64,000 nt of DNA from Eledone cirrhosa. Its lineage: Eukaryota. Positions 2,781 through 55,277 of the stretch are shown in pieces; the stretch's first letter is position 1, and the number at the start of each line of letters is the position of its first letter. A program made the position numbers and the translations under genes. The notes below the pieces were generated by a model. It saw only the letters and a program-made list of their open reading frames with translations, was not told where the DNA came from and did no database searches. Location of the stretch: assembly GCA_964016885.1 (NCBI GenBank), contig OZ024740.1:366296001-366360000 (forward strand). The letters run 5' to 3'.

Positions 2781-2790
2781 TATATATATT

Positions 2791-3610
2791 AAAGGGTTCT
2801 CCCTAAAAATGAAAGGCAGGTTGTACGATGCCTGCATACGAACAGCAATGTTGCATGGCAGTGAGACCTGGGCATTGTGTGCAGAAGATATACGCAGACT
2901 AGAGAGAAACGAAGCTTGCATGCTCCGCTGGATGTGTAATAGTAATATACGTGAAACGACAAAGCATAAACGAACTAAGGAAAAAATTAGAAATAAGAGG
3001 GATCAGATGTTGTCTACTCGAGAGAAGGCTACGTTGGTATGGTCACGTAATGCGCATGAAGGACGATAGCTGTATAACAAAGTGCAGGGCAATAAAGATA
3101 GACGGTAGCCACGGAATAGGCAGACCCAGAAAAACCTGGGATGAGCTGATAAACTCCGACCTCACACACTTACACCTCACCAAGACAATGCCACTGGACC
3201 GAGACCTTTGGCGGTACTCAGTAATAGAGAAGACCCGCCTTACCTAAATACAAAGTAAAACCTACTACAGTCAGTAGGCACCTCTAACAAAATACACCCC
3301 CGTCCCACTACCCCCATCCCATCCACACCACCCTTTTCAATGTTAAGTTATGTTGGTACCACAACATCCAGGCCGAAACAAATGAGGTCGTGTAGGTGTC
3401 ACAACAAAAAAAACACAGTCCACGCTGTAATGTGGCCGTGTAGGCAACACGGTAAAAACCTCCCAGTCCCACACTGTAAATGTGGTTGGTGTTAGGAAGG
3501 GCATCCAACTGTAGAAAACCTGCCAGACAGTCCTATGCGAGCAAGACAATCACTCTTGCCTCAAGTGGGAATACCCCCGCCCAACCCATGCAAGCGTGGA
3601 ACACGGACGT
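2791..3610 (+). mobile_element. 5'-truncated RTE-type LINE (young family)
   Basis: KGRLYDACIRTAMLHGSETW...RRLRWYGHVMRM...GRPRKTW C-terminus (frameshifted) plus the family 3' UTR. Confidence 0.92.
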
Positions 3611-8131: not shown

Positions 8132-9772
8132 ATCATCATCATCATCATCATCATCGTTTAACGTCCATCTTCCACGCTTGCATGGGTTTGGATGGGAGTT
8201 TTCCCACTTGAGGCAAGAGTGGTTGTCTCGCTCGCATAGGACTGTCTGGCGGGTTTTCTATGGCTGGATGCCCTTCCTAACACCAACCACGTTTACAGTG
8301 TGGACTGGGAGGTTTTTACCGTCTTACCTACACGGCCACATTACAGCGTGGACTGTGTGTTGTTTTGTCGTGACACCTACATGACCTCATTTGTTTCGGA
8401 CTGGATGTTCTGGTACCAACATAATTTTACATCAAAAGGGGTGGTGTAGATGGGGTGCGGGTAGTGGGACGGGGGTGTATTTTTGTTAGAGGTGTCTACT
8501 GACTGTGGTAGGTTTCACTTTGTACTTAGGTAAGGCGGGTCTTCTGTATTACTGTGTAGCGCTAAAGATCTCGGTCCAGTGACATTGTCTTGGAGAGGTG
8601 TAAGTGTGTGAGGTCGGAATTTATCAAGTCGTCCCAGGTTTTTCTGGGTCTGCCTACTCCGTGGCTACCATCTATTTTTATCGCCCTGCACTTTTTTATA
8701 CAGCTGTCGTCTTTCATACGCATCACGTGATCATACCAACGTAGTCTTCTCTCGAGTAAACAACATCTGATCCCTCTTATTTCTAATTTCTCCCTTAGAT
8801 CGTTTAAGCTTTGCCGTTCACGTATATTACTATTACACATCCAGCGGAGTATGCAAGCTTCGTTCCTCTCCAGTCTGCGTATATCCTCTGCACACAATGC
8901 CCAGGTCTCACTGCCATGTAACATTGCTGTTCGTATGCAGGCATCATACAGCCTGCCTTTCATTTTTAGAGAGAAGCCTTTAGCGGCTAATAGTGGTATA
9001 AGCTCTCTGAACTTTTTCCATCCAGTTCTGACTCTAGCTACTGTACTTTCAGAGCACCCTCCACCACTGCTGATTTTGTCACCCAAGTAACGGAAGGTGT
9101 CCACTATTTCTATAGAACCATCTGTGCAATGGAATGAGCTAGTATTCTGTGGGCACTTGCTGCTACTTATTGCACCAGAGCACCGACCACATATAAAATC
9201 TATGTTCTTAGTTAGCTTACCTGTGATCCTACTACATCTTTTATGCACCCATACTTTGCATTTGGGACATAAAATGGAGTTTCTACCTACTCCTTTCCTA
9301 CACACTGAGCATGGCCATTTTCCGGATGGAACCGGTGCCCTATTTTCCTTCCTACAAACTAGAACTTTAGTCTTAGACAGGTTAATTTTAAGGCCTTTTG
9401 ATTCTAGGCCATGCTTCCATGTTTGGCCATCGATTCAGCTATGAGCGTTAGATCATCTGCGTATAGGAGTTCTCATGGGCAGCCGGTCTTGAACTCCACT
9501 GTTATAGCCTGAAGGGCAATAATAAATAGTAGGGGGCTAAGAACGGATCCCTGACGAACACCAACTTTTACGCTAAACTCTTCGGTATATTCGTTGTTAA
9601 TTCTAACCTTGCTGACTGTTTCTTTATACATGGCTTGTATAGCTCTCTCACAAGCCATTCATCAACACCTAGTTTTCTAAGAGCCCACCAGATAATGGAA
9701 CGGGGGACTCTGTCGAAGGCTTTCTCCAAGTCGACAAAAGCTATGTATAGGGGTTTACTTTTAGCTAGGTAG
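8132..9772 (-). mobile_element. 5'-truncated RTE-type LINE with RT core
   Basis: LYIAFVDLEKAFDRVPR, VGVRQGSVLSPLLF, LLYADDL, C4HC3 finger, FRYLG, RRLRWY. (GAT)n tail at 8132. Stops and an internal deletion. Confidence 0.95.
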
Positions 9773-14471: not shown

Positions 14472-14477
<6 letters not shown>

Positions 14478-14767
14478 GTGAGGGCTTTTTTTTACAAAAT
14501 GAAAAATAACCGAGGTGTCCTACACGAGTGAAAGTATAAGGAAAAAAGATGAAATCGAAAATGCAACTGGAGTCTTATTTTTAAAAAGATATATATATAT
14601 TTATTTGGTTCCTTTACCGGTTTCACAGTTCTTCTGCTTTTCAAAAGTAGAGTTGAGATGGAGGGTCTGTGTTTTTTTTCACAACTGTCAAAAACCAAAT
14701 AAATATATATATCTTTTTAAAAATAAGACTCCAGTTGCATTTTCGATTTCATCTTTTTTCCTTATAT
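14472..14767. mobile_element. Foldback PLE-like mini-element (sibling of 16861-17232)
   Basis: Inverted arms ~14535-14610 / 14693-14767. Minus-strand GAAAccggTA hammerhead half. (TA)n flanks. Confidence 0.8.
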
Positions 14768-15585
14768 ATATATATATATATACACACACACAATTATGTG
14801 TGTGTTGTGTATGCATATATGTATATAAATATATTTATAAAAATATAGACATTCTGATATACTCTTTTACTCTTTTACCTACTCCAGCCATCCGGCTGAG
14901 GCCATGCTCGGGCACCGCCCTTATATTTGGGAAACACAAATAACATAAAGAAATATTTGCCTATTTACTCAGAGCATTCCAACTGCAGTTTCATTGAGCC
15001 AACTCAGTATTCTGAGCTGCAAAAATCTCAAATTGTCAGGGAACATTTTCAAACAAGAAAGAAACCTACTAATTTGTCCGCTACCAGTAATAATTTTGAA
15101 CAGGAAAATTAATACATGATTAACATCCTACAGAGACACCTACCTCCACTGTGGCTTTCCTCTACTGGCCTGTCCCTTCTCATACTGGTGCCATCCAGCT
15201 TCACACTGTAAATGTGATTGCGGCTCCCAAACTATGGCTCCGCTGAGAGAAGGGTTTGGCCCAGTTAACTGGTTTGTCCCTCCTCATAACAGTGAGCAGT
15301 AAATGTAGTTGGTGTTAGGAAAGGCATCCAACTGTAAAAATTCCAGCCAAATTTACAGTCCTGTTTGAGCAAGGTGCAGCGTGGCCGATTCTGGCCAGAC
15401 TTGTCTCATGACGTGGACAACCCATCTAACCCATGCAAGCATGGAAAATGGACGTTAAACAGTGATGATGATGATGATATCATCATTATCGATTTTACAA
15501 CCATTTTCCCACGTTTGCATGGGCTGGACAGGCCTTTTTCAATGCAGTATCTAAAAAAATTTTGCAAAGCAAATACAAATATGAG

Positions 15586-15629
<44 letters not shown>

Positions 15630-15685
15630 CTCATTTGTGTGTTATCCTTTTGCAGGGGCCATGATCATGATCATCATTTAATGTA

Positions 15686-15726
<41 letters not shown>

Positions 15727-15774
15727 TATTCAAAATATTAATAAATGAAGACGTTCACATAATCAAAATATATG

Positions 15775-15836
15775 TTTTATTATATATATTTCGGAGGTAT
15801 TGTGCTGTTTATTCAGTACATCCTCGTCAGATAAAA
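15775..15836 (-). ncRNA. Type I minimal hammerhead ribozyme
   Basis: Reverse complement reads ttttat-CTGACGA-gga tgtactg(aataaa)cagcaca atacc tcc-GAAA-tatata-TA-ataaaa. Confidence 0.8.
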
Positions 15837-16619
15837 TACATGAATTGATGTATGACATACCTCAACTGTTTTGATGGTTCAATTCCAGTATTGGCAGTCA
15901 TTTATTACAACAAATCTCAATATTTATATACCACAAATAATAACTTGATAGACTTAAATATGATGAAGAAGCGGATGTGGAGCGAGATATAAGTATAAGG
16001 AGGGGGTGAGTATGAGTAAATGCAAGAAGAAATACACATACATAAATATTTAAATGCGTAAATATCCGTGTTAGGGAAGAAAAAGAAAGAGAGATAGATA
16101 GAAGAGAAGAAAGAAGAAGAGAAGAGATAAGAAGAAGAGAGAGAGAGAGATGAGAGAAGAGGAAAGTAATCAATGAACCATATTAATCTTTGGTTATATA
16201 TATATATATAGCCCCTGCATAAGGATGACATGCAAATTTGTGAAGCATTCCATATTTTTATATGCTATATATTTTATAAAACCCTTTTTTTTTTTTTCTT
16301 CAAAACAATGTTTTCTCCTTTTTTCAAAAATAACACTTTGTTGAATTAAAGAAGAAAAAAAGATTCTTTGAATATACTTCCGTGCTGTTTCTATTCTTAC
16401 TTTATATATCGACAGTCGATCAACAAGATCCCAGACCTCATTCACATAACGAGTGGGGTGAAGCTCATCAAATCGGACCAAGAAAACAATTTTTCCATAG
16501 GTTTTTCCAATTGGTAGTACTATCTGTCAGTCAAAACTCCAGGAAGAAGGAGCAACATCAAATAAAATGTCTTGCCTAAGGATATAACGCATTGCCCAGA
16601 CTGTACTGGAGCAGTACAT

Positions 16620-16812
16620 GTATTTATTATGGCTAAGTAGTGAGTCTTATTACTCTGGTGTTTGATCTGCACACTCACAGGATCATTGGACAAGATGATT
16701 CCATGAGTGCAAAGGTGAAATTCCAGAGTAACAAGACTCACTACTTAGCCATAATTTATGAATATTTAAACTCTACTTCGGTATTGAGTACTCTTTTTTT
16801 CTTGGCTGTCAA
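16620..16812. mobile_element. Degenerate foldback mini-element
   Basis: attatggctaagtagtgagtcttattactctgg / ccagagtaacaagactcactacttagccataat arms. Tail ctctac...gtattGAGTACTC at 16786. Confidence 0.65.
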
Positions 16813-16860
16813 CTACATACAGATATATGTATGTATATGTATATATATATATATATATAT

Positions 16861-17232
16861 TAGAAAGTGAGGTTTTTTTTTTTACAAATTGAAAAATAAC
16901 CGAGGTGTCCTACACGAGGGAAAGTATAAAGAAAAAGAGATGAAATCGAAAATGCAAATGGAGTCTTATTTTTTAAAAAAATATATATATTTATTTGGTT
17001 CCTTTACCGGTTTCGCAGTTCTTCTGCTTTTCAAAAGGTGAGTTGAGATGGAGGGTCTGTGGTTTTTCTCACATCTGAGTGTGAGAAAAACCACAGACCC
17101 TCCATCTCAACTCACCTTTTGAAAAGCAGAAGAACTGCGAAACCGGTAAAGGAACCAAATAAATATATATATTTAAAAAAAAAAAAAAGACTCCAGTTGC
17201 ATTTTCGATTTCATCTCTTTTTCTTTATATAT
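16861..17232. mobile_element. Foldback PLE-like mini-element
   Basis: ~150-bp near-perfect arms centred at ~17075. tgcGAAAccggTAaagga...aataaa. (TA)n flanks. Confidence 0.85.
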
Positions 17233-17246
17233 ATATATATATATAA

Positions 17247-17456
17247 GGTGTAGGAGACACGGTAAAAAGGTTCCCAGTCCACACTCTAAAGGTGGTTGGT
17301 GTTAGGAAGGGCATCCAGCTGTAGAAAACCTGCCAGATACACTTCCGTGAGAGTGAGACACGGTCTCACTACCATTCCTGCATCAAATGGAACAAAACTG
17401 TCCAACCCATGCAAGCGTGGAAGAAGGACATTAAATGATGATGATGATGATGATGA

Positions 17457-17460
<4 letters not shown>
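17247..17460 (+). mobile_element. RTE-related 3' tail / SINE fragment with (GAT)n
   Basis: ggttggtgttaggaagggcatccagctgtagaaaacctgcc ... aacccatgcaagcgtggaa ... (gat)n. Confidence 0.75.
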
Positions 17461-17510
<50 letters not shown>

Positions 17511-18229
17511 GGACGGTTGGAGGGTCACTGATGAAGGATTTACTTTTTCATATGTATCCCATTTGCAACGCGCAGCTCCATTATTATCATATTTACACAT
17601 ATTTTTTCTCCTGCTGCCACCCGTCTGTTTCGTTCTTTGTATATTTACCCTTTCTAGCAGTCTCTCTCTCTGTTAGCCTCCTCCTCAACTTTTACTCACT
17701 CATTCTCTGTCACTACCTCTCCTCCTCCTCCTCTTTCCTCCTCTTTCTTCCCGCTTGACCTGTCCGATTTCTTTTCTCGCGCGTTCTTGGCCAAGCCGGT
17801 ATGAAATTTTTTTTCTCTCTCTCTCTCTCGTCTGCGACTTCACAGAACTTATGTTTATCGAATTCGCAGACCAGACCCCTTCTTCTTCCCCCCGTTAGAC
17901 CTGTGCGAAATTCCTTCCTTGCTCACATTTCAACCAGGTTTGATGGTCTTTTGTCTCTTGTTCACGATTTCACCGAGTTTATATTCATAGAAATCTGGGA
18001 CTTGTCTCTTTCTTCTCACTTTCCGTTGCTTAAACCATTTTGTTTGTTCACCCTAACGTCCCCTTTATTTACGTGTCCCAACGACTTATTTTAGCCGTTG
18101 TTCGCACCAACCTGAGGTATATGGCCCTTAAAGCGATGAAATGCCTGGGACGGTTGGAGGGTCACTGATGAAGGACTTACTTTTTCATATGTATCCCATT
18201 TGCAACGCGCAGCTCCATTATTATCATAT
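17511..18229 (+). mobile_element. Non-coding terminally redundant element A (637-bp period, 82-bp direct repeat)
   Basis: 17511-17592 repeats at 18148-18229 with one mismatch. (TA)n on both sides. Pyrimidine-rich body. Structured motif at 18075-18176. Confidence 0.75.
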
Positions 18230-18260
18230 ATATATATATATATATATAATTATATATATA

Positions 18261-19410
18261 TAAGTAGCAGCAAGTACCCACAAAATACTAGCTCTTTCAA
18301 CTGCGCAGAGGGCTCTATAGAAATAGTGGACAGCTTCCGTTACCTGGGTGACAAAATCAGCAGTGGGGGAGGGTGCTCTGAAAGTACAGTAGCTAGAGTC
18401 AGAACTGGTTGGAAAAAGTTCAGAGAGCTTATACCACTATTAGCCGCTAAAGGGTTCTCCCTAAAAATGAAAGGCAGGCCGTATGATGCCTGCATACGAA
18501 CAGCAATGTTGCATGGCAGTGAGACCCGGGCATTGTGTGCAGAGGATATACGCAGACTAGAGAGGAACGAAGCTTGCATGCTCCGCTGGATGTGTAATAG
18601 TAATATACGTGAATGGCAAAGCATAAACGAACTAAGGAAAAAATTAGAAATAAGAGGGATCAGATGTTGTTTACTCGACAGAAGGCTACGTTGGTATGGA
18701 CACGTGATGCGCATGAAAGTCAATAGCTGTATAACAAAGTGCAGGGCAATAAAGATTGACGGTAGCCACGGAATAGGCAGACCTAGAAAAACCTGGGACG
18801 AGCTGATAAACTCCGACCTCACACACTTACACCTCTCCAAGACAATGTCACTGGACCGAGACCTTTGGCGGTACTCAGTAATAGAGAAGACCCGCCTTAC
18901 CTAAATACATAGTAAAACCTACTACAGCCAGTAGGCATCTCTAACAAAATACAGCCCCGTCCCACCACCCCCACCCCATCCACACCGCCCCCTTCTATGT
19001 AAAGTTATGTTGGTGCCACAAAATCCAGGCCGAAACAAATGAGATCGTGTAGGTGTCACGAAAAAAAAACACACAGTCTACGCTGTAATGTGGCCGTGTA
19101 GGCAACACGGTAAAAACGTCCCAGTCCCACACTGTAAATGTGGTTGGTGTTAGGAAGGGCATCCAGCTGTAGAAAACCTGCCAGACAGTCCACGCTGTAA
19201 TGTGGCCGTGTAGGCAACACGGTAAAAACCTCCCAGCCCCACACTGTAAATGTGGTTGGTGTTAGGAAGGGCATCCAACTGTAGAAAACCCGCCAGACAG
19301 TCCTATGCGAGCAAGACAACCACTCTTGCCTCAAGTGGGAAAACTCCCGTCCAAACCCATGCAAGCATGGAACACGGACGTTAAACGATGATGATGATGA
19401 TGATGATGAT
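18261..19410 (+). mobile_element. 5'-truncated RTE-type LINE with ~112-bp tandem duplication in the 3' UTR
   Basis: ORF 18200..18904 (FRYLG...RRLRWYGH...GRPRKTW). (GAT)n tail. Duplication ~19073-19184 / 19185-19296. Confidence 0.95.
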
Positions 19411-19689
19411 ATATATACATATATACACATACATATACATACATATACATACATATACACAAACACATACATACAAATACATACACACACATATGTATGT
19501 GTGTAAAACTCATTCTTAGATGTATTCATATGAACCTTGTTTAACTCTTAAATATATATATATATATATATTAAAGGACTTGAACATCTGAAACTACTTC
19601 GCTTTTCCTTATTCCATATTTACTCCGTCACTCCTATGTGGAAAAAGTATGTTGAGTGCTTGAATTGAATTGCATCAATGTTTACCCTA

Positions 19690-19724
<35 letters not shown>

Positions 19725-19758
19725 CATACACACACATATACATACACATACATATATA

Positions 19759-19900
19759 GTGGCTGCCAACTCGTTTTCGAGTACGGCCACTACTTTATAT
19801 CCATGTAGGAGAACCCTTACCGATGCGCTAAACGAGTGTGACTTTTTAGTCCAGCCAGCGACTTGAAAACTCTGGTACAAACACTACACTTGTGACAATT
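19759..19900 (-). mobile_element. 3' end of an RTE/BovB-like LINE with terminal C2H2 finger
   Basis: CHKCSVCTRVFKSLAGLKSHTRLAHR*, then a short UTR with a ctcgaaaacgag hairpin, ending in (TA)n. Confidence 0.7.
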
Positions 19901-20309
19901 ATTGACACATACATATACATACATACATACACACACATACATATACATACATATACATATATACACATACATATACATATACACACATACACATACATAT
20001 ACACACATACATATACACATACACATACATATACACATACACATACACATACATATACACATACACATACACATACATATACACACATACATATACATAC
20101 ATACATACACACACACACATATATATAAGAAAAAACATAAATATTATATATATAAAAAGCATAAATATTGTATATATAAAAATAAAAAGTTGGGAATACG
20201 ACAAATAATAAATAAATATTTAGTTTCTTAATTTGTTTGGCAAGATTCTTTATCTGAAAACGTGTGTTGAAACCGATATTGTTATACTTTGGGAGGGTCA
20301 TGTTGCCAA

Positions 20310-20597
20310 TATTTTGTTAGAGATGCCTACTGACTGTAGTAGGTTTTACTTTGTATTTAGGTAACGCGGGTCTTCTCTGTTACTGAGTACCGCCAAAGGT
20401 CTCGGTCCAGTGACATTGTCTTGGAGAGGTGTAAGTGTGTGAGGTCAGAATTTATCAGCTCGTCCCAGGTTTTTCTGGGTCTGCCTACTCCGTGGCTACC
20501 ATCTATCTTTATTGCCCTGCACTTTGTAATACAGCTGTCGTCTTTCATGCGCATCACGTGACCATACCAACGTAGCCTTCTCTCGAGTAAACAACAT
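20310..20597 (-). mobile_element. Internal RTE fragment
   Basis: RRLRWYGHVMRMKDD...GRPRKTW...KTRVT*. Confidence 0.9.
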
Positions 20598-20624
20598 TAT
20601 ATATATATATATATATATTTTCGC

Positions 20625-21358
20625 CCCCTCTGTCAGTTACACTTTCTCTCGACTGACCACTTCCTCGCACTTCCACTCACTCACTCTCTGTTTCTCCCCT
20701 TCTCACTTCCTCCCGTTTGGCTTACAGTGGGTCTCTTCTTGCTTACATCTCACTCAGGTCGGACGTCTGTACCTTTCGCTCATGAAATCCACCCAGCTTA
20801 TGCTGACCAGGACTACCATGTTGCTTGTTTTTTTCCTTTCTTTGGTTTGCTTTTATCCTTCTATGTTGTTCACTTGTCCCCCTCGCTTTACGCGATTTGC
20901 TGGTCCCAATAACATTTTTTTAGTTATTGCTCGCACCAACCTGAGGTATATTATTTTTAATGCGATGAAATACCAATGATGGTTGGAAAATCACTGACGA
21001 AGGACTATTTTTATCATATGTAACCCATGTGCAACCACGCAGTATTCTTCTTTCTTCTCATGTTTTTTATATATATTTACCTCGGCTGCGTTTGTCTGTT
21101 TCTCTCTTACTGCTTCCCCGTTCTCTCTGTTTCTCTCACCTTCTTTCCACCCCTCTGTCAGTTACACTTTCTCTCGACTGACCGCTTCCTCGCACTTTCA
21201 CTCACTCTCTGTTTCTCCCCTTCTCACTTCCTCCCGTTTGGCTTACAGTGGGTCTCTTCTTGCTTACATCTCACTCAGGTCGGACGTCTGTACCTTTCGC
21301 TCATGAAATCCACCCAGCTTATGCTGACCAGGACTACCATGTTGCTTGTTTTTTTCCT
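20625..21358 (+). mobile_element. Non-coding terminally redundant element B (~525-bp period, ~210-bp direct repeat)
   Basis: 20625-20837 repeats at 21150-21358. Shares the structured motif (20901-21007) with element A. (TA)n on the left. Confidence 0.7.
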
Positions 21359-21884
21359 GTGCAGAACACTCCTCTGGAGTATATTCCTTCAGCCGTATTA
21401 TGTGTGTATTTTGTAGATAAGGGTCATAGTAAGATGACCAATCCCAGCCCCTCTAATGATATATCCACTAAAGTACTAAATGACACTAGCTGAAATGATA
21501 ACCAATATGCCTTGGTAGCAGTGTATATATATGTTTGTGTTCATTTGTATGTTCATTTTCCTTATACCCTATCAAACCCCCAAGGAAGATATACCTGGAT
21601 AATAATTAATTGTGAGGAAGATGTTAAAAAGAGAGGATTTCAAGCTTTCCCAGGGAATGTTTGCTTATGTTTCACTGATTATGAAAAAGAAGGTTAGAAT
21701 CAAGCATGCAGGGATACATCTCTCTACATGACATTGATGATATTTACTCAGAATATATGCACACAGACATAATCTCCCCCCCTTCCTTTCTTGATACACC
21801 TACACACATATATATAGATCCTACATACACATACTCACAACATGTACTCTATATACTGGTAACAATGTTAGTAGAATGTCAACC

Positions 21885-22432
21885 ATACTTAAATATGGAA
21901 TGCCCCGGCGGACAGAATAGAGAAGGTGTTTCCCCGGAGGACAGCAAGGGAGACGTGCTGGAAAAGCCACTCCAACTCGCAGGGCTCACACCTGCAGCTG
22001 GCCAGCTCAGCACCTATGGTGGTGAATAGGGAGGTAGCCCTAGGGCCGAGGACACCAGAAGTCTCCACTGCCAGGGGTACAACCGCAAACCTGTCGGAGA
22101 GCGACCGGTATTTGAGAAGTTTGGCCTCCTCAGCCCGACGTGCAGCAGAACCTGGGTTAGTGGCAGACTGCAACAGGTTGCGGCTGCAGAAAGTGTCGGT
22201 GCAAGTGGCATCCCAGACGAGAGGTTTGCCACTGCGGAAAGGGAAGATGGTCATGCCATCTGGCCTTTTGCCGTCCCCTCAGTCCAGTCCCACCGACTCG
22301 AGCTAGGAAGAGGAGCCTGCAGCATCCAAGCCATGCTTTATGACCTCGTTGAGGGCAGCATGGCGTGGAAGGCGGCCGGCACTGTGGAGACAGGAAAGCA
22401 GGTGAAGGCCGAAAGAGAGTCCACTGGTAACA
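21885..22432 (-). pseudogene. CRE-type non-LTR retrotransposon 3' fragment (restriction-like endonuclease)
   Basis: HLLSC...GRLPRHAALNEVIK...GKRPDGMTIFPFRSGKPLVWDATCTDT...EEAKLLKY...VPLAVETSG. PD-(D/E)xK RLE of CRE style. Confidence 0.8.
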
Positions 22433-22717
22433 ATTGAAACTCTATTTCTTGTTCTTTCTGCATCAAGAAAAAAAAAAATATGCATATATGAATGTATGGT
22501 ACAATGAATTTTTATATTTGTTTCTGAGTGTATCTATCTGTCTGTCTGTCTGTCTTAATGCCTGCCTGTCTGCCTTTCTTTATGCCTGTCTGTCTGTCTT
22601 TATGCCTGCTTGTAGTCTGTCTGTCTTTATGCCTGTCTGCCTGTCTGTCTGTCTTAATGCATGTCTGTGTCTGTCTGTATGTCTGCTTCCTTAAGTGCCT
22701 AACTATCTACCTATCTG

Positions 22718-23020
22718 TGGCGAAAATGGCCCAAGTGAATGGGCCTTCTCTGTATATAAACTTGTAGCTTGAGGAAGACAAACAGAGGGAAGACTGGGTC
22801 ACCTACAAAACGTGCTCCTGGTGTTGAGGGTTGTTCTATCCACGGGGTGTAAAACAACCCCGCAGTAACGTTCCCCCCCCATTGGGCATTTCGATTGTTT
22901 TATTTTGTATATAGTTTATTGTTATTCATTATTATTGTTAAAGATTTTTATGTAAAACTCCTGCCGTCACGTCTTGTAATATCCCATTCGTGTATGCCCT
23001 TGTGGCAAATAAAGAAATAT
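22718..23020 (+). mobile_element. 3' end of a LINE (possibly L1/Tx1-like), inserted in (TCTA)n
   Basis: ORF end ...AKMAQVNGPSLYINL*, then a UTR ending gcccttgtggcaAATAAAgaaat. A related tail lies on the minus strand at ~56413-56510. Confidence 0.45.
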
Positions 23021-24419
23021 ATCTATTCACCTATCTAGCCATCTACCTGTCTCTCTAGCTAGCCATCTATTTATCTATCTATACCTACTCTTGAGTCCCA
23101 AATAATGTGTGTGTGTATGGGGGGTATTTGAGACTGAGAGAATTGAATTATTTCCTCATCATCAACACCAACACATCAACCATCCTTCCTCTAACACACT
23201 TTTCTCTGCTAATGGGTATATAAGTGATGTTTCCACTTTCTTAGTACCTGGCATGTTCTTGAATGAAACAAGATGCCTTTTGTTGGACTCTGTCCTCCAC
23301 ATCCTCCTCCTCCTCACCCCTTTACCTCCTAGTCATCCTCCCCTTCTACTCATCGTCCACTCCTCCTCACCCCTCCTCATCATCACCCACCCCTTCTCCT
23401 CCTCACACTACCACCTCCACCACCACCACCATCACCACCATTACTACAACCACCACCAGCACCATCATCAATATTTAACATCCACTTTTGCTGCTAGCAA
23501 GGGTTGGACAGGTATTTACAGGCCAAGTTAGTGTTACCGATGTCTTAAATAGGTTGGTATTCTGCATCATGCTTACATATGTTCCTGCACTCTACAGAGT
23601 GCATTGGGTGCATTCTACTGTGGGACCAACACTAAGAAGATTGTCGTGTCTTTGGCACAACTGAAGGGTCGTCTGGATACATTATGTAGAAAATGTTCTA
23701 TGATTAGATGCCCTTCCTATCACCAACCACTTTATGTGAATTTATCATGACATCAACATTATCTGAACTTCTTCCACCCCATTCTCACTCTGGCTACAAC
23801 ATTTTAGTATATCTTCCATCACTCAGCTAGATAACAAAACCTATCTACTACTTCTAGTGAACATAAGTGAGTATATTTCATGAGTAACTTTAATGTTGAC
23901 TACTCATGCACCTGTCACATATGAAGTCTACCTTCTCTGTCAGCCGACTTGTGATTCTTGTGTGTTCATTGTAAATACTAACTCACAATAATAGGTATCA
24001 ATTTGACTCTACAAACAGTATCAAGTCCTTTATTTAGTGTATGTTTAGAGTGCTTAGCTACACGAACCTATAAAATGAGCTTTAAAATGTGTATGTTAGT
24101 ACACATCTATATGCTCATGATAGAAGCATAGAAGCACTACCCTGATACATGGCGTGCCTTTGGCATTTTATACTTGGCAGTGTCCATCCCACTGCAGGTC
24201 TGAATGCAACCTATTTCTTCCAGAGAAGGAGACAGAGGATGAATCAACCCCAGTGCTTGACTGGTACTTCATTTATCGATCTCAAAAAGATGAAAGCAAA
24301 GTTGAGGTGGGTAGGATTTAAATAATAGAAAAATCTATTTACAAAATTATTTTAGTTTTCTATAGCATTTATATCTCTATCTCTAGTTAGTAATTTGACT
24401 GTTAATGTTGAGATGAATC

Positions 24420-25215: not shown

Positions 25216-26471
25216 ATCATCATCATCATCATCAACGTTTAACGTCCGTGTTCCACGCTTGCATGGGTTTGGACGGGGGTAGTCCCACTTGAGGCAAGAG
25301 TGATTGTCTTGCTCGCATAGGACTGTCTGGCAGGTTTTCTACAGTTGGATGCCCTTCCTAACACCAACCACATTTACAGTGTGGGTCTGGGAGGTTTTTA
25401 CCATGTTACCTACAAGGCCACATTACAGCGTGGACTGTGTGTTTTTTTGTCGTGACACCTACACGATCTCATTTGTTTCGGCCTGGATGGCGCGGCACCA
25501 ACATAACTTTACATAGAACGGGGTGGTGTGGATGGGGTGGGGGTGGTGGGACGGGGGGGGGGGTATTTTGTTAGAGATGCCTACTGGCTGTAGTAGGTTT
25601 TACTATGTATTTAGGTAAGGCGGGTCTTCTCTGTTACTGAGTACCGCCAAAGGTCTCGGTCCAGTGACATTGTCTTGGAGAGGTGTAAGTGTGTGAGGTC
25701 GGAGTTTATCAGCTCGTCCCAGGTTTTTCTAGGTCTGCCTATTCCGTGGCTACCGTCTATCTTTATTGCCCTGCACTTTGTTATACAGCTATCGACTTTC
25801 ATGCGCATCACGTGTCCATACCAACGTAGCCTTCTCTCGAGTAAACAACATCTGATCCCTCTTATTTCTAATTTTTTCCTTAGTTTGTTTATGCTTTGCC
25901 GTTCACGTATATTACTGTTACACATCCAGCGGAGCATGCAAGCTTCGTTCCTCTCTAGTCTGCGTATATCCTCTGCACACAATACCCAGGTCTCACTGCC
26001 ATGCAACATTGCTGTTTGTATGCAGGCATCATACAACCTGCCTTTCATTTTTAGGGAGAACCCTTTAGCAGCTAATAGTGGTATAAGCTCTCTGAACTTT
26101 TTCCAACCAGTTCTGACTCTAGCTACTGTACTTTCAGAGCACCCTCCCCCACTGCTGATTTTATCACCCAGGTAACGGAAACTGTCCACTATTTCTATAG
26201 AACCCTCTGCGCAATTGAAAGAGCTAGTATTTTGTGGGCACTTGCTGCTACTTATTGCACCAGAGCACCGGCCACATGTAAAATCTATGTTCTTAGTTAG
26301 CTTACCTGTGATCCCACTACATCTTTTATGCACCCATACTTTGCATTTAGGACATAAAATGGAGTTTCTACCTACGCCTTTCCTACACACCGAGCACGAC
26401 CATTTCCCAGAAGGGACCGCCGCCTTATATTCTTTCCTACAAACTAGAACTTTAGTCTTAGCCAGGTTAAT
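25216..26471 (-). mobile_element. 5'-truncated RTE-type LINE
   Basis: Intact 259-aa C-terminal ORF 25611..26390, full 3' UTR and (GAT)n tail. Confidence 0.95.
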
Positions 26472-26529
26472 ATATTTATATACATATATGTGTGTATCTA
26501 TATATATGCATATATATATAGCTGAGAAA

Positions 26530-27508
26530 TAGATGGGTAAGGTGATATAGATAGTTCAAGTAAGTGACAGAATTATCAAGCTTAGAATAGCCATAGGAAA
26601 TAGAATGGTGACAATAACATCTGCCTATGCTCCACAGGCAGGACTGAGTAGACAACAAAAGGTTGAGTTCAATGATGTACTTTTACAGACAACTTCAGTT
26701 ATTAATGAAAGAGACCTCATCATCCTGGCAGGCAACTTCAATGGAAATGTTGGATAGTACCAGAACAGATTCATTGAGTTCATGGCAGCTATAGTTGTAG
26801 CTTAAGAAAAGAAGAGGTAGTGAGGTTTCTGGAATTCTGAGATGCAAATGAACTAACCATTTGCAACACATATTTCAGGAAACTGGCTAGCCACCTAATC
26901 ACATACCAATGAGGTGAACACACATGCCAAATTGAATTCTTACTTGTAAGACAAGATAATTATTAGCAACATCAGAATAAGAACAAAACAGAACAAGATA
27001 CACAGGGTAATGTGGAGACAGAGGGTTTAGAAGCTAAAGAACCTTTCAGTTAAATATAAGTTTAGAAAGACCCTATGGGCAAATGCACAACTTCTGCTAG
27101 TCAGCTGTCAATTGGGTGGTTTTGTAGTTTTTGATACTTTAAAAGAGAGTACTAGTCTTCCCAGGGCATCAATTGTCTCTAAGGAAAGAGAGCTATTCAG
27201 GATGAAAACATGTTAATGGACAAGAGAACAATGGTACAGAATGGGTTTTATCAACCAACTGGAGAGGGAAAGAAGATGAAATATATATATACCAATACAG
27301 GAGAGGAAAACTGCTCCAAGAAATTGCAGGGAAAATATAACACAAATATAGAAAGGCAATCACAGAAGAATATATATATATCATCATTTCATCATTTTAT
27401 ATCTATTTTCCATGCTGGCATGGGTTGTATGGGTTGTAATTCTCCAAGACCAAATAGGTTGGATTGACCTCATCTTCCTCTTATTACATTCATACAAACA
27501 TACATACA

Positions 27509-45401: not shown

Positions 45402-46711
45402 CGAGGGGGGATCAAAAAGTTTGCGGAATTTTTCAGAAAATATTCTATTTTTCAAAAAATATGATTTACCATCAATTTATTTTTTTACATAGTTGCTATC
45501 CAGGTCAATACACTTGACAAGGCGATGCTTCCAGCTTCGTAACCCGTCTCTAAAGAAAGTTGAAGGCCTTGTTCGAAGCCATGTGTTGGCAGTGTTTTTA
45601 GCTTCTTCAACACCACTAAAACAGGTTCCTTTTAGCATTTCTTTGAGTTTTGGAAAGAGGAAAAAGTCTGATGGGGCTAAATCTGGACTATAAGGTGGGT
45701 GAGGAAGCACTTCCCATCGAAATTCTCGAAGAACTTCTTTTGCAACCCGCACAGAATGCGCTGGTGCATTGTCATGGTGAAACAAGATCCACCATGAAGT
45801 TTCCCTTTTCGTTTCTTGACTAATGCCTCTTTCAGCTTCCTTAAAACATTTGCATAGTAAGCTGCTGTCACAGTTCTTTGACCTTCAAGATAATCTATTA
45901 GTATCACCCCATCTGAATCCCAGAAAATGGTGGCCATCACTTTTTGATCCGACTTTTGAGATTTGAACTTGATTGGCCCCGATGATCCACGTGGAAGCCA
46001 CTGTTTTGACTGCTGTTTGGATTCAGCATCATACTGGTAGATCCAGGTTTCATCTCCGGTGATGATTCTGGTCAGGAAATGCTCTTCATCAACTTCAATT
46101 TTGTTTAATATCGCCAAAGACAGATCACTTCGAAGAATCAGCTGATCAGGGCGCAATGGTTTTGGGACCCATCGCGCTGAAAGCTTGCTTAGTCCCAAAT
46201 TATCGTGCAGAATTGAATTTGCCGAACCATATGAAATGTCTAGGGACTTAGCTAACTGATTAACTGTTATTCTTCGATCTTCTTCAATTAAAGTCTGAGC
46301 AGCCTCAACGTTTTGGTCATTTTTTGATGTTCCTAGTCTTCCACTGCGATGGTCGTCTTCAAGGTCGTCTCTCCCTTGTTTGAATCGCTGAATCCACGTG
46401 TAGACAGCAATTTTCTTTGTAGCAGTAGTACCGTAAACTTTAACTAAAGCCTCCATAATCTGTATCCCTTTCCACTTGAGTTTCTCCAGAAACTTGATAT
46501 TCGATCTTATCTCAAAATAACTATTTTCCATTGTTCCAAAAAGAGGTTTTTTAAAGAGTGTCAGTACTGTACAATAGTCTGCACAAAACAGACTGCAAGT
46601 GACTAATAGCAAGGTAAACACCCAGTGACAATGTTCTGACATGTTTAATATTGTTTTAACCTATTTTTTTCTTACTACGATAAAATTCCGCAAACTTTTT
46701 GATCCCCCCTC

Positions 46712-48100: not shown

Positions 48101-48966
48101 TATTAGCTGCTAAAGGGTTCTCACTAAAAATGAAAGGCAGGTTGTACGATGCCTGCATACGAACAGCAATGCTGCATGGCAGTGAGACCTGGGCATTGTG
48201 TGCAGAGGATATACGCAGACTAGAGAGGAAGGAAGCTTGCATGCTCTGCTGCATGTGTAACAGTAATATACGTGAACGGCAAAGCATAAACGAACTAAGG
48301 AAAAAATTAGAGATAAGAGGGATCAGATGTTGTTTACTCGAGAGAAGGCTACGTTGGTATGGACACGTGATGCGCATGAAAGTCGATAGCTGTATAACAA
48401 AGTGCAGGGCAATAAAGATAGACGGTAGTCACGGAATAGGCAGACCTAGAAAAACCTGGAACGAGCTGATAAACTCCGACATCACACACTTACACCTCTC
48501 CAAGACAATGTCACTGGACCGAGACCTTTGGCGGTACTCAGTAACAGAGAAGACCCGCCTTACCTAAATATATAGTAAAACCTACTCCAGCCAGTAGGCA
48601 TCTCTAACAAAATACACCCCGTCCCACCACCACCACCCCCACCCCATCCACACCACCCCGTTCTATGTAAAGTTATGTTGGTGCCGCGCCATCGAGGCCG
48701 AAACAAATGAGATCGTGTAGGTGTCACGACAAAAAAACACACAGTCCACACTGTAATGTGGCCGTGTAGGCAACACGGTAAAAACCTCCCAGACCCACAC
48801 TGTAAATGTGGTTGGTGTTAGGAAGGGCATCCAACTGTAGAAAACCTGCCAGACAGTCCTATGCGAGCAAGACAATCACTCTTGCCTCAAGTGGGACTAC
48901 CCCCGTCCAAACCCATGCAAGCGTGGAACACGGACGTTAAACGTTGATGATGATGATGATGATGAT
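48101..48966 (+). mobile_element. 5'-truncated RTE-type LINE
   Basis: ORF 48055..48567, 3' UTR, (GAT)n tail. (TA)n flanks. Confidence 0.95.
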
Positions 48967-51069: not shown

Positions 51070-52386
51070 TCATCATCATCATCATCATCATCAACGTTTA
51101 ACGTCCGTGTTCCACGCTTGCATGGGTTTGGACGGGGGTAGTCCCACTTGAGGCAAGAGTGATTGTCTTGCTCGCATAGGACTGTCTGGCAGGTTTTCTA
51201 CAGTTGGATGCCCTTCCTAACACCAACCACATTTACAGTGTGGGTCTGGGAGGTTTTTACCGTGTTGCCTACACGGCCACATTACAGCGTGGACTGTGTG
51301 TTTTTTTTGTCGTGACACCTACACGATCTCATTTGTTTCGGCCTCGATGGCGCGGCACCAACATAACTTTACATAGAACGGGGTGGTGTGGATGGGGTGG
51401 GGGCGGGGGTGGTGGGACGGGGTGTATTTTGTTAGAGATGCCTACTGGCTGGAGTAGGTTTTACTATATATTTAGGTAAGGCGGGTCTTCTCTGTTACTG
51501 AGTACCGCCAAAGGTCTCGGTCCAGTGACATTGTCTTGGAGAGGTGTAAGTGTGTGATGTCGGAGTTTATCAGCTCGTCCCAGGTTTTCCTAGGTCTGCC
51601 TATTCCGTGACTACCGTCTATCTTTATTGCCCTGCACTTTGTTATACAGCTATCGACTTTCATGCGCATCACGTGTCCATACCAACGTAGCCTTCTCTCG
51701 AGTAAACAACATCTGATCCCTCTTATCTCTAATTTTTTCCTTAGTTCGTTTATGCTTTGCCGTTCACGTATATTACTGTTACACATCCAGCGGAGCATGC
51801 AAGCTTCGTTCCTCTCTAGTCTGCGTATATCCTCTGCACACAATGCCCAGGTCTCACTGCCGTGCAGCATTGCTGTTCGTATGCAGGCATCGTACAACCT
51901 GCCTTTCATTTTTAGTGAGAACCCTTTAGCAGCTAATAGTGGTATAAGCTCTCTGAACTTTTTCCATCCAGTTCTGACTCTAGCTACTGTACTTTCAGAG
52001 CACCCTCCCCCACTGCTGATTTTATCGCCCAGGTAACGGAAGCTGTCCACTATTTCTATAGAACCCTCTGCGCAATTGAAAGAGCTAGTAGTTTGTGGGC
52101 ACTTGCTGCTACTTATTGCACCAGAGCACCGGCCACATGTAAAATCTATGTTCTTAGTTAGCTTACCTGTGATCCCACTACATCTTTTATGCACCCATAC
52201 TTTGCATTTAGGACATAAAATGGAGTTTCTACCTACGCCTTTCCTACACACCGAGCACGACCATTTCCCAGAAGGGACCGCCGCCTTGTTTTCTTTCCTA
52301 CAAACTAGTACTTTGGTCTTAGCCAGGTTAATTTTAAGTCCTTTTGACTCTAGGCCGTGCTTCCATGTTTGGAATTTCTTCTCTAA
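51070..52386 (-). mobile_element. 5'-truncated RTE-type LINE
   Basis: Intact 259-aa C-terminal ORF 51472..52251, 3' UTR, (GAT)n tail. Confidence 0.95.
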
Positions 52387-55277
52387 TAATGATTCTGTTA
52401 ATTCACTGCCTTTGACTAGTACTTTATTTAAGTATGGTGTTGCTCTAATGATTCTACCATTTCACTGCCCTTGTTGGAATGACTATAATATAAGAAATAT
52501 TGATACATACTGTGTGAAAACCTAATGTGTTAGGTATGTTAGGTATTATCAGCTGGACATGTGACAGACCAAGATACTGCCAGGAAGAAGTCAGATGAGG
52601 TCATAGAAAATTAAATCACACTGATAAGATAAGAGGTACTATAGACATTTTTTACCTATATCGTCATGGAAAGTGCGCAATAAAACATTTTTTAATAATG
52701 ATAGTCAACATGAATGTTGACAATGATTATGATTATAAGGATGATGATGTTCTTGGTGAATAACAATAAAATGTAAACAAAGAAAGCTTCCCCATAAGAG
52801 GGGTGGCTCTGAGGGCTACACATAGAAAATCTACAAAAGTTAAAAAGACCACTAAGGATAAGTGCCTTCTCCGCGTTGTTCTCTTAATAACTGGTACATA
52901 CTCAGGACACCCAGTCACTTGGATCATGTTCGTAACTCTAATTCACCTTTCAACAAATTTACTGGAAGGCTGCACTTCCCTCTCCACCCTGAATTTCCTT
53001 TTAAAGTGAAACTTGAAAAAAGTCTATGAGGGTTTGCCCCAAGAAGAAAGTGTCTGTTTTCAACCTGTTTGATCTTAACTGCTGCACAACTTCATTCACC
53101 ATGGTCACCAAATAGATAAGAACTGCCTGCCCTTCCTGGACAAAGGAAGGCAGAGGGGCAATTTTCACAATGGTCTCAGTTGATAGCAGCTGTTTGACAT
53201 AACTTCACAAATTAGCAATGCTCAGGAACTGGGCAAGTGTGTGTAGAACAGTTTCCTCACTCCGTCCACATCTCAGACAGATCTGGTTGATGGAACATCT
53301 GTTCCTGTAGAGTTTATCCCAAACTAACAAATGCCGCTGGTAGCCCTGCCAGGCCAGAGATTTCTAGAAATTATCCATAGGCCTTGGGTTGAAAGTCTTC
53401 TGGAAAAAGTTTAGCCTCTTGGTTTTTGTCAATGTCCAGAGTCTCTTTGAGAACGTCACCCATTTTACCCAACACTAATTCCTCTATAGAACACAAAAGT
53501 AGAGTTTCCACTGGCTGCAGTGCCCAATTGACTGAGGGTTGTGAGCAACTGACAACATTCTAGTTGCCAAGCACTCTCTCTCAGTCTTTGTTTGACCCAA
53601 GCCAGCAACTCAGCCAAAGAGATGAGCTGGGAAAATACACATCTGATGAATGGCAACTACACCTGTTCACCACCAAAGATCAGATATGAACTGGAGTAAG
53701 GCATACCGGTCAGACATGAACTGGGGCAAGGCATGCAGTCATGCAATAATAATAATAATATGGTGGAAACTAAGGGAGTTGAAACATTGTGACAAAAAAA
53801 CAAAAAAACAACAACAACAAAACTATTGACAGTTTACCAAAGTCCCCACCTCAACTCAAACAAAGACAGACTATACCTTACCCATACACAAGGAGGACAT
53901 AACCCAAAACAAATAGAAATTTACTAGAAAATAACAAGAGTAAGCTGAGGGGAACACTAAGAAGCAAATAAAGGAAGAATGATAAATATAAAAAAAGAAA
54001 CATGAAAAGAAACAAAAAAGGTCTCTCTATAAAGAAATAGTAAGTAGGAAATAGAACCAACTTCCCTGAAACAATAGATCTTAATATAATAAAGGGAGGA
54101 GTGCGGGACTGTGTCCTGAATATATTTTTTTATCCCGTTTGTAAAATAAGTTGAATTACTTTGAATAAATAATGAATGAATATTACATAATTTATGTAGT
54201 AAATTTCGAAACTCTTGATTAAATATAAATAATTTTATTGCTTATTTCAAGATTCACTTCTTTTAAAATTTTCAAATGTCAATACTTCTGGTTATGATAT
54301 AACGGACGCTATATCATATCACTTATATAAACGTTCATATACTTCCATTGTTATGTAAGGCTTATAATTCCGTCGCTAATTTTCTCCTTTTTCGTTTTCA
54401 TGAGGATGGAGTCTTCGACTGAGGGTGGAGTCTTCGACTTGGCCTGAGCATGGACTCAAACTCAAATGAAATGAAATGAAATAACATTTCATCATTATGC
54501 AGTTTATATATAATATCGTCTTTTTTAGATGTATCATATCATGGATTACTTTACTGATTACAGAAGAGGGTGTAACACAGTCTTTCTTCAATTTCTGTGC
54601 ATATTCTCAATTACAATTTTATTTGACAGGTGTTTTTTTTGTTAGTTTAAATAACAATGTAAGGTAAATAATGGTTCCTAATATAGGGTAGGGGAAAGTT
54701 GATTATATCAACCTAGTAATTAACAGTTACTTTATTTTATTGATCCTCCCCTTCCTCAGAAGGAATGAAAGTAAAGTTGACATTGTCCGGATTTGCTAAA
54801 TGTTACAAAGTATTTTGTTTGACCCTCTTACAATTCTGCCAATCTACTACTCTAATTTTCACTAATGATAATTATAAAAATAATCATAATAATAACGAAA
54901 AATACATATTTATTTTCAATACAGAAATAATAAAAAAGAAGGAGAAACAAAAGGAAAGAAAGAGTAGGGAAATATAGAGAAAAAAAGAGAAGGATAGAAA
55001 GAAAGAAGAAAAAGATTGGGAAGGGGACGGGATGGCAAGAGCCTTGGTGTCACAGAAGCGAGGGGAGGGGTGAAGGGGGAGGGTGATTGGGCTTTGGGCC
55101 TAGGGCAAGAGTGCAGAAGTGTTTCTACATTTGGCACAAGGTCAGTAATATGAAGGAAAGGGGAAAGTTGATTATAGTGACTTCAGTATTTAACTGGTAT
55201 TATATTTGCCAGAAGGATGTAAGGCAAAGTTGGCCTTGGTCGGATTTGAATGCAGAATATGGAAGGTTATAACTAAA

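Follow-up and report, generated by a model that had tools for sequence, protein, structure and literature searches.

Two non-coding elements, A and B, were found in a window of 64 kb, the whole stretch of DNA analysed here. We lean towards reading them as members of an abundant non-coding family with a predicted, non-circularly permuted hammerhead core, likely a non-autonomous Naiad-type Penelope-like retroelement (PLE) copied from an RNA circle that the ribozyme had made.

Terminal redundancy of elements A and B

The features of both elements are collected in Table 1. The first-pass annotation had described A as starting and ending with the same 82 bp at a period of 637 and as bounded by (TA)n, and this was confirmed: the two terminal repeats differ by 1 mismatch in 82 nt, and TA tracts lie on both sides. 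The redundancy claimed for B (about 210 bp, period about 525) was also found. Its segment 20625-20837 recurs at 21150-21358 with 96.8% identity over 219 columns (counted from 20619), and the period is 525 to the left and 521 to the right of an indel because the repeats differ by a single indel of 4 nt. (TA)n adjoins three of the four ends of A and B, both of which are partial tandems, and is frequent across the whole window. At the right flank of B, neither (TA)n nor a second match within the window was detected.

A conserved motif of about 130 nt, relative to which the two elements are opened at different points, had also been proposed. Both parts held (141 nt aligned, 77% identity), but the homology is wider than the motif. 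Once rotated into register, the two monomers can be aligned almost throughout, with an identity of about 66%, and the alignment outside the motif scored 107, versus maxima of 69 in 200 dinucleotide shuffles and 81 in 200 local shuffles. The different opening point depends largely on the right end of B, a single case with no TA flank, which later truncation could explain; taken alone, A resembles the usual partial tandems of Penelope-type elements. The predicted cut site is spanned seamlessly in both elements, and neither of them ends there. The monomer strand is 68% pyrimidine and weakly self-paired; when the monomers were folded as circles, only 40-43% was paired (z -3.0 for A and -0.3 for B).

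No Pfam family was matched by any of the 25 frames in and around A and B, drawn from the 61 frames listed for 15500-23500, and an N-terminal GIY-YIG plus reverse transcriptase (RT) ORF was absent from both elements. A minus-strand open frame through the motif was rejected as a gene, as its 23 differences fall 6, 8 and 9 times on codon positions 1, 2 and 3. The earlier view that neither element encodes a recognisable protein was thus upheld, and an attached PLE or LINE ORF was not found among the 25 frames.

Table 1. Positions of elements A and B, their flanks and their predicted RNA parts, in window coordinates
Feature	Position	Strand	Remark
Element A	17511..18229	+	1.13 monomers, period 637; 1 complete predicted ribozyme
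Left terminal repeat of A	17511..17592	+	starts at kink-turn bulge, +27 from predicted cut
Right terminal repeat of A	18148..18229	+	terminates at +108, in internal UA-rich tract merging into (TA)n flank
Internal tandem repeat, diverged	17737..18016	+	A only; unit ~140 nt, 62% identity
(TA)n flank, left of A	17459..17510	.	preceded by (GAT)n tail of unrelated repeat
(TA)n flank, right of A	18230..18262	.	followed by LINE 3' fragment
Predicted ribozyme domain of A	18075..18176	+	102 nt
P0 of A	18075-78:18173-76	+	predicted
Hairpin Pa of A	18079-85:18094-100	+	predicted
Stem II of A	18172:18137 plus 18102-05:18133-36	+	predicted
Outer helix of A	18107-12:18152-57	+	predicted
Stem III of A	18116-20:18141-45	+	predicted
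Stem I of A	18122-28:18158-64	+	predicted
AUA triplet of A	18119..18122	+	predicted cleavage 18121/18122, placed by comparison with hammerhead numbering
GAAA core block (G12-A15.1) of A	18138..18141	+	
CUGAUGA core block of A	18165..18171	+	CUGACGA in B, differing at free position 7 only
Predicted kink-turn of A	18113..18151	+	UGA 18113-15 opposite 3-nt bulge 18146-48 and GA 18149-50
Small hairpin downstream of core in A	18186..18202	+	retained in B; predicted
Element B	20625..21358	+	1.40 monomers (525 nt); its two ends lie +200 and +408 from predicted cut
(TA)n flank, left of B	20598..20618	.	B flanked by (TA)n on left side only
Predicted ribozyme domain of B	20903..21005	+	cut 20950/20951, GAAA 20967-70, CUGACGA 20994-21000
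Internal (TA)4T tract of B	21068..21076	+	near A's end position; candidate priming site on (TA)n target

A predicted hammerhead core in S-G-C order

The hammerhead core (CUGAnGA, GAAA and an NUH triplet) is intact in both elements: 22 of the 102 columns of the domain differ between A and B, yet none of the 12 core columns does (P 0.045). The blocks are arranged in the non-circularly permuted order S-G-C, and the linker between stems I and II is short. The first-pass annotation had stated that the family lacks a canonical hammerhead. This stands for types I, II and III, whose parses were rejected by hand as their stems fail to close, but not for the hammerhead core as such, which is complete in its permuted order.

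Stem I holds 7 of 7 pairs in A and 6 of 7 in B, with three double changes, and stem III holds 5 of 5 in both. In stem II, one A-U pair joins blocks C and G, and 4-5 more need an upstream strand that is invariant between A and B; a pairing of 18178 with 18132 was given up in favour of this upstream-strand model. A kink-turn consists of a canonical stem, a 3-nt bulge, tandem G-A/A-G pairs and a non-canonical stem. The sequence pattern fits this consensus in A, B and two Naiad ends; the bulge is variable, and the GA pairs are identical in A and B. The predicted kink-turn would connect stem III with the helix leading into stem I. The B copy is probably weak or dead owing to its A-U-rich stem I, which is unstable on its own (+5.4 kcal/mol), and to a U-C mismatch beside the cut.

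To evaluate the fold, an S-G-C descriptor designed after the motif had been seen was run on both strands of the 64 kb. It matched only A and B, and no further core copies were found in the window; shuffles gave 0.06 matches per window, and none of 100 gave two. In the structure model, which was derived from A and B themselves, 67 of 70 cells are paired, with five compensatory double changes; 18 of 500 shuffles scored equally high, and slid controls were 27-49% paired. The five double changes had a P of 0.0004 under random placement and of 0.10 when the changed columns were fixed, while under the latter the retention of all but one of the pairs had a P of 0.005. Helices I and Pa covary. Since A and B do not vary in P0, the outer helix and four of the stem II pairs, these parts rest on the by-eye comparison with Naiads described below. 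The motif folded alone gave no stability signal (z -0.9 and -0.1). Furthermore, the 26 Rfam matches up to E 10 included no ribozyme and represented microsatellite noise. Likenesses to C/D snoRNA, U4, SECIS, HDV and pistol RNAs were dropped; the sole such match in Rfam was snR66 (E 9.6).

Abundance and covariation in sequencing reads

The monomer was matched in four public runs, by 2051 contigs of X1, 143 of X4, 50 of X5 and 5047 reads of X13. The end-to-start junction recurs in X4 and X5 contigs with differing letters, so that the head-to-tail junction is present in other copies, also under another organism label. The proposal of a multi-copy family was borne out, and the recurrent junction speaks against a one-off local tandem duplication. 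The summed contig depth over the core was 1.3-5.0 x 10^5, compared with 9-33 in the eight long contigs listed from X1; this suggests thousands of copies or more, although depth is not copy number. Among the contigs of these runs, none covers the whole monomer. The reads also contained the B-like shorter form and forms with additional internal units (17687 to 17885; 17953 to 17822).

The reads were examined after stem I had been predicted. C>T at 18125 was seen in 431 of 439 reads and G>A at its partner 18161 in 592 of 621; the corresponding changes at 18127 (430/439) and its partner 18159 (592/621) were also seen. The family reads thus reproduce two of the five A/B compensatory double changes, although not as independent events, since the read changes are largely those of B's subfamily. 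Among the 11 read changes listed in the domain, 5 lie at paired positions, all of them pairing-compatible, and 6 are unpaired. The core is invariant among the 40 changes listed.

Loose left ends occurred at 17822, 18037 and 18129 in one or two contigs apiece, which is too few for a breakpoint map. The X13 read ends piled up at 17861, 17864, 17909, 17912, 17769 and 17994 and were read as library cut sites; a GAATTC of A accounts for two of them, and a sequence nearly matching GAATTC for another two.

Likeness to Naiad 3' ends

The comparison with Naiads was a by-eye reading, not a computed alignment, of 14 published 3' ends (supplement of PMC8557442). Eight of the 14 clearly parse as permuted hammerheads; three share the A/B layout, five are clean type-CSG hammerheads, and four gave no parse within the 600 nt displayed. 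The two octopus ends, Naiad_Obim and Naiad_Ovul, have the helix order and the kink-turn of A/B and a similar upstream hairpin, but their helix sequences differ. A crustacean end (the record taken as Naiad-4_Dst), examined after the full model had been written down, shows the same order without the kink-turn. Moreover, A stops at a TA tract 58 nt past CUGAUGA, much like the octopus Naiad ends. The suggested Penelope-type affinity gains support from this by-eye layout. A preference for (TA)n and partial tandems are typical of Naiads (PMC8557442). Canonical hammerheads were reported to be absent from Naiads, which have only 'half cores' (Craig et al. 2021, PMC8557442).

The strict pattern had no match in viral contigs; two loose matches there were taken as chance. 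In metagenomes, the strict pattern matched 0 times and the loose pattern 84 times; when 86 loci were compared, two satisfied a relaxed criterion for pairing, and BLAST revealed no similarity of any of them to A or B.

A proposed circular template and alternatives

In the reading that we favour, a locus bearing at least two ribozymes would be transcribed into the pyrimidine-rich + strand, and every ribozyme would cleave after AUA, by which a 525-637-nt monomer would be freed. The monomer would be closed by a host ligase, as reported for non-LTR retrozymes. A Naiad-type endonuclease/reverse transcriptase would then nick (TA)n and prime at the internal UA tract or elsewhere, and copying would exceed one round of the template and stop variably, so that each copy would be redundant at its termini and would keep an intact internal cut site. 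The left terminal repeat of A, with the CUGAUGA block alone, is incomplete as a ribozyme. A and B carry one complete predicted ribozyme each; thus neither of them would free a monomer through two cuts. Naiads of cephalopods have been described as remnants that have long been inactive (PMC8557442), whereas the A terminal repeats differ at only 1 of 82 sites, a contrast that counts against this reading.

The chief rival, which we regard as less likely, is a linear tandem template with later loss of the right end of B. The family and its ribozyme would be the same, and the partial tandems would arise without a circle, either by template jumping or from a linear tandem transcript left partly uncut. 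A would comprise a copy truncated at its 5' end together with a complete monomer bearing the usual 3' end, and B would be a longer tandem. The octopus-like end of A, the missing TA at the right end of B, the partial tandems of Naiads and the pLTRs and head-to-tail arrays of non-autonomous Chlamys elements (PMC8557442) are consistent with this, and as type-SGC ribozymes are slow (0.007-0.13 per min; PMC10085705), uncleaved read-through RNA is plausible. However, the rest of B is absent from the 42 kb downstream, a doubly cut transcript cannot yield a copy spanning the cut unless by ligation or a precise jump, and non-LTR retrozymes with tandem hammerheads do produce circles (PMC7229834; 10.64898/2026.07.22.740005).

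It is improbable, in our judgement, that the fold is real but does not cleave, being a hammerhead-derived, protein-bound cis-element at the 3' end that serves as an RT loading or pausing signal. The single stem II pair between blocks C and G, by which the published SGC descriptor is failed, the weak stem I of B and the coincidence of the left end of A with the kink-turn bulge fit such an element, and a kink-turn suggests protein binding. Nevertheless, every catalytic position and a cleavable triplet persist in both elements and in the Naiad ends inspected, and the pseudoknot (PK) hammerhead is active and fast with a one-pair stem II and an outside strand (PMC11300833). An origin at the DNA level, by satellite circles, rolling-circle DNA transposition or local duplication, with incidental hammerhead words, appears very improbable. 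Re-inserted DNA circles likewise give permuted ends, and the internal repeat number of the monomer varies; but further copies share the junction, also under a different organism label. A function of the RNA is suggested by covariation that is strand-specific and includes G-U pairs, by the complete core and by the resemblance to the 3' module of Naiads.

Significance

We tentatively propose, as possible rather than probable, that Naiads and their non-coding passengers carry working hammerheads masked by non-circular permutation; that the A/B family has a layout different from all six published so far (a chain that opens between A9 and stem II, a four-way junction, and a kink-turn making cleavage dependent on a host protein of the L7Ae family); and that this family has spread to very many copies in an animal genome via ribozyme-made RNA circles. 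Reports of non-circularly permuted hammerheads have come from environmental sequence only, plus two CSG and zero SGC examples from known genomes; with an abundant family in an apparent animal genome, they would gain both a role and a host. The seeming lack in Naiads of the hammerheads present in other PLEs would be explained as well. Eckert et al. 2023 (PMC10085705) pointed to a geometric problem, the path by which stem III meets the stem I-II helix. The predicted kink-turn may be a solution to it as well as a route for host-protein control. In the literature searched, mostly outside subscription papers, there was no report of SGC or CSG hammerheads from the genomes of animals or from PLEs, and none of a natural hammerhead with a kink-turn.

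Comparison with known hammerheads, Penelope-like elements and retrozymes

Type-SGC hammerheads (HRIMA-1 and variants; Eckert et al. 2023, PMC10085705) share with A/B the order cut site, GAAA, CUGAnGA, the intact core, a stem I-II linker of about 3 nt and a helix leading into stem I. They are from metatranscriptomes only, none coming from the genome of a known organism. Their stem II has at least three pairs between blocks C and G, whereas A/B have one and form the remainder via the upstream strand. The published descriptor asks for C-GAAA, CUGAUGA(U)G and a stem II extended by 2-6 pairs between these blocks; A/B have U-GAAA, CUGAnGA-A and no additional pairs. Only A/B have P0 and Pa closing the domain and a predicted kink-turn linking stem III to the outer helix.

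The PK hammerhead (Zhan et al. 2024, PMC11300833) resembles A/B in that stem II is the 10.1-11.1 pair continued by an outside strand and that an additional helix is joined to helix I. Its outside strand comes from an added stem-loop, and its fold has the connectivity of pistol; A/B instead have the S-G-C order, with the outside strand placed 5' of the outer helix.

Naiads are 3.4-4.4 kb long with an EN-RT ORF (Craig et al. 2021, PMC8557442), whereas A/B carry no such ORF. As far as the available text of PMC8557442 goes, the MRC1-type Chlamys elements are, as proposed for A/B, non-coding PLE passengers with pLTRs and head-to-tail copies, and their 3' end resembles that of the autonomous family; unlike A/B, they are from green algae, use other microsatellite targets and have no reported ribozyme.

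Non-LTR retrozymes (Cervera and de la Pena 2020, PMC7229834; Li et al. 2026, 10.64898/2026.07.22.740005) are defined by a type I hammerhead, which A/B lack, and their circles are highly self-paired, unlike the weakly paired A/B monomers. Retrozyme monomers are typically 150-450 bp, with families of 51-972 bp in Li et al. 2026, compared with 525-637 nt in A/B. Nevertheless, both are non-coding, multi-copy and head-to-tail with a GC content below 50%, and both have a monomer with one hammerhead and a proposed PLE origin.

Terminal redundancy and family membership of A and B

The terminal redundancy described for elements A and B in the first-pass annotation was confirmed, and the coordinates are listed in the table. 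A was flanked by (TA)n on both sides, B at the left side only. The conserved motif reported earlier corresponded to a 141-nt block common to both monomers (77% identity), and the homology reached beyond it: the monomers were alignable across most of their length (approximately 66%), and the alignment outside the block scored 107, compared to shuffle maxima of 69 and 81. The extra length of A was mainly an internal repeat of approximately 140 nt. Since none of the 25 reading frames tested in and around A and B matched a Pfam family, and the A/B differences were distributed evenly across codon positions, neither element is coding, in agreement with the earlier annotation.

Features of the window
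Feature	Position	Strand	Remark
Element A	17511-18229		first 82 nt again at 18148-18229, 1 mismatch
Element B	20625-21358		repeat ~210 nt, period 525/521
Stem III of A (predicted)	18116-20 with 18141-45	+
H17 of A	18121	+
Stem I of A (predicted)	18122-28 with 18158-64	+
GAAA block of A	18138-41	+
CUGAUGA block of A	18165-71	+
Palindrome	16925-17229		second copy 14472-14766
LINE 3' fragments	18263-19410, 25216-26555, 51072-52461, 8132-9434, 48101-48966, 2790-3608
841-aa open frame	58343-60868	+	AP endonuclease and RT domains
327-aa open frame	45677-46660	-	mariner-type transposase
GC-rich fragment	21900-22430	-	RPDG...WDATC (by hand)

Four public sequencing runs were mapped onto a single monomer of A (17593-18229) with a likeness threshold of 80%. 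The mapped sequences were 2051 of 17.1 million contigs (X1), 143 of 762,587 contigs (X4), 50 of 8.25 million contigs (X5, a run labelled with a different organism), and 5047 of 12.5 million reads (X13). The end-to-start junction of the monomer was present in X4 and X5 contigs, with letters differing from A, and a shorter B-like form was seen in X13 reads. Therefore, A and B belong to a repeat family, and the one-off local tandem duplication that the first-pass annotation had weighed is excluded.

Putative permuted hammerhead core

The earlier view that the family lacks a canonical hammerhead stood in so far as an Rfam search gave no ribozyme match for the core; however, all three hammerhead blocks could be parsed by hand on the plus strand, in the order cut site, GAAA, and CUGAnGA. 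A descriptor of this order had no matches in the window other than A and B, and shuffled sequence gave 0.06 matches per window. Judged by its sequence, the putative core has the block order that Eckert et al. (PMC10085705) named type SGC. They found no type SGC in the genome of any known organism, and since their descriptor requires C-GAAA, CUGAUGA(U)G, and a stem II longer than that of A/B, it would miss the A/B motif.

In the predicted fold, stem III is connected to the outer helix by a 3-nt bulge followed by tandem G-A pairs. Such an arrangement matches the kink-turn consensus, and the predicted junction fits it; the letters of the bulge vary among A, B, and the reads. In the model, blocks C and G are joined by one pair only (A18172-U18137), the next four G-block bases have their partners at 18102-05, on the 5' side of the outer helix, and the bases 3' of CUGAUGA pair with 18075-78, closing the domain. 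The chain would thus be opened inside block C of Eckert et al., and the kink-turn link and the upstream-strand stem II are predicted as two features beyond SGC.

For the outer-helix 3' strand of A (18152-18156), a possible alternative partner lies downstream (18203-18206), as it does for the equivalent strand in B (20981-20985 with about 21032-21036); one was likewise visible by eye in Naiad_Ovul, a Penelope-like element (PLE) of the Naiad group. This second partner could be an on/off switch.

Pairing and covariation

In a 35-pair model of A and B, 67 of 70 cells were paired; slid controls gave 27-49%. Five pairs, of which stem I holds three and hairpin Pa two, were changed on both sides between A and B, and 18 of 500 shuffles equalled the observed pairing and double changes. 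The probability of the five double changes was 0.0004 under random placement and 0.10 when the changed columns were fixed. Unaided, ViennaRNA recovered P0, Pa, the outer helix, and stem III in B. Counting against the model, the isolated motif was no more stable than shuffles, and stem I of B was weak.

Two stem I pairs were U-A instead of C-G, both partners having changed, in 95-98% of the X13 reads, and the same two were switched in X1 at 41-70% of depth. Among the 11 read changes listed in the domain, from a table of which 40 rows were shown and 114 were not, five lay at paired sites, all pairing-compatible, six were unpaired, and none fell in the hammerhead core. Since the read changes mostly coincide with the letters of B, they are not independent events.

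One X4 contig (record 16; left end 18129) starts 7 nt past the predicted cut and adjoins a CA/TA-like tract, as expected if copying had been truncated 5' close to the end of a cleaved RNA.

Template of the copies

Relative to the predicted cut (between 18121 and 18122 in A), the left and right ends of A lie at +27 and +108, and those of B at +200 and +408. The predicted cut is spanned once, intact, in each. For a monomer cut at both ends to yield cut-spanning copies, it would first have to be ligated, or the copying would have to include a precise jump. The monomer RNA would work as in a retrozyme, being cut by the ribozyme, ligated, and copied as a circle; non-LTR retrozymes form circles, a step that RtcB carries out efficiently in vitro (PMC7229834), and an origin from PLEs has been proposed for them (Li et al. 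2026). We slightly favor this route, in which A and B were copied from ligated, ribozyme-cut RNA circles. An uncleaved linear tandem as template, the right end of B being lost later, is a less probable but serious alternative; that the fold is present and does not cut is unlikely, and an origin at the DNA level is very improbable.

A ends in the UA-rich tract of the monomer, and a (TA)4T lies at roughly the equivalent place in B; this suggests that copying is primed at (TA)n target sites that have been nicked.

Other repeats in the window

A near-perfect, MITE-like palindrome of approximately 300 bp lay between (TA)n tracts. The 3' fragments of one LINE family were 91-96% identical with (GAT)n tails, and three contained a PHD-finger frame. 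The LINE and mariner frames mark the host as a eukaryote, and the resemblance to Naiads (see below), together with the general character of the repeats, makes a cephalopod probable. The GC-rich fragment had no Pfam match; its hand-read motif presumably corresponds to the terminal restriction-like endonuclease of CRE-type non-LTR elements.

Comparison with known systems

The A/B family is predicted to work like retrozymes, yet its putative hammerhead is not of type I, and its core departs from published SGC ribozymes in stem II. As a precedent, stem II of the pseudoknot hammerhead (PMC11300833) is a single pair extended by an outside strand. Literature searches found no permuted hammerheads reported in PLEs or animal genomes, nor did the available parts of PMC13725137, PMC10886601, and PMC6765202 mention any.

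Craig et al. (PMC8557442) describe Naiads as inserting into (TA)n, as occurring in partial tandems, and as being without canonical hammerheads, with eight 'half cores'. Although cephalopod Naiads are described there as old remnants, the terminal repeats of A differ at one site. We parsed by eye the 14 Naiad 3' ends obtained from its supplement (600 nt each; names by file order). Four gave no hammerhead parse and two (Esco, Sdum) a tentative one; that of Sdum was S-G-C, its core pair being U3-A8, and the annotated SECIS element may lie in its long linker. Naiad_Obim and Naiad_Ovul had the helix order and kink-turn of A/B, but their helices differed in sequence. The record assigned to Naiad-4_Dst, examined after the model had been written down, had P0 and Pa, a stem II of 6 bp supplied by the upstream strand, the outer helix, and both stem III and stem I, but no kink-turn. 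Hcon, Hpol, Naiad-3_Nbra, Parc, and Smim were clean type CSG, each with stems I-III and an I helix, compared to only two published CSG examples.
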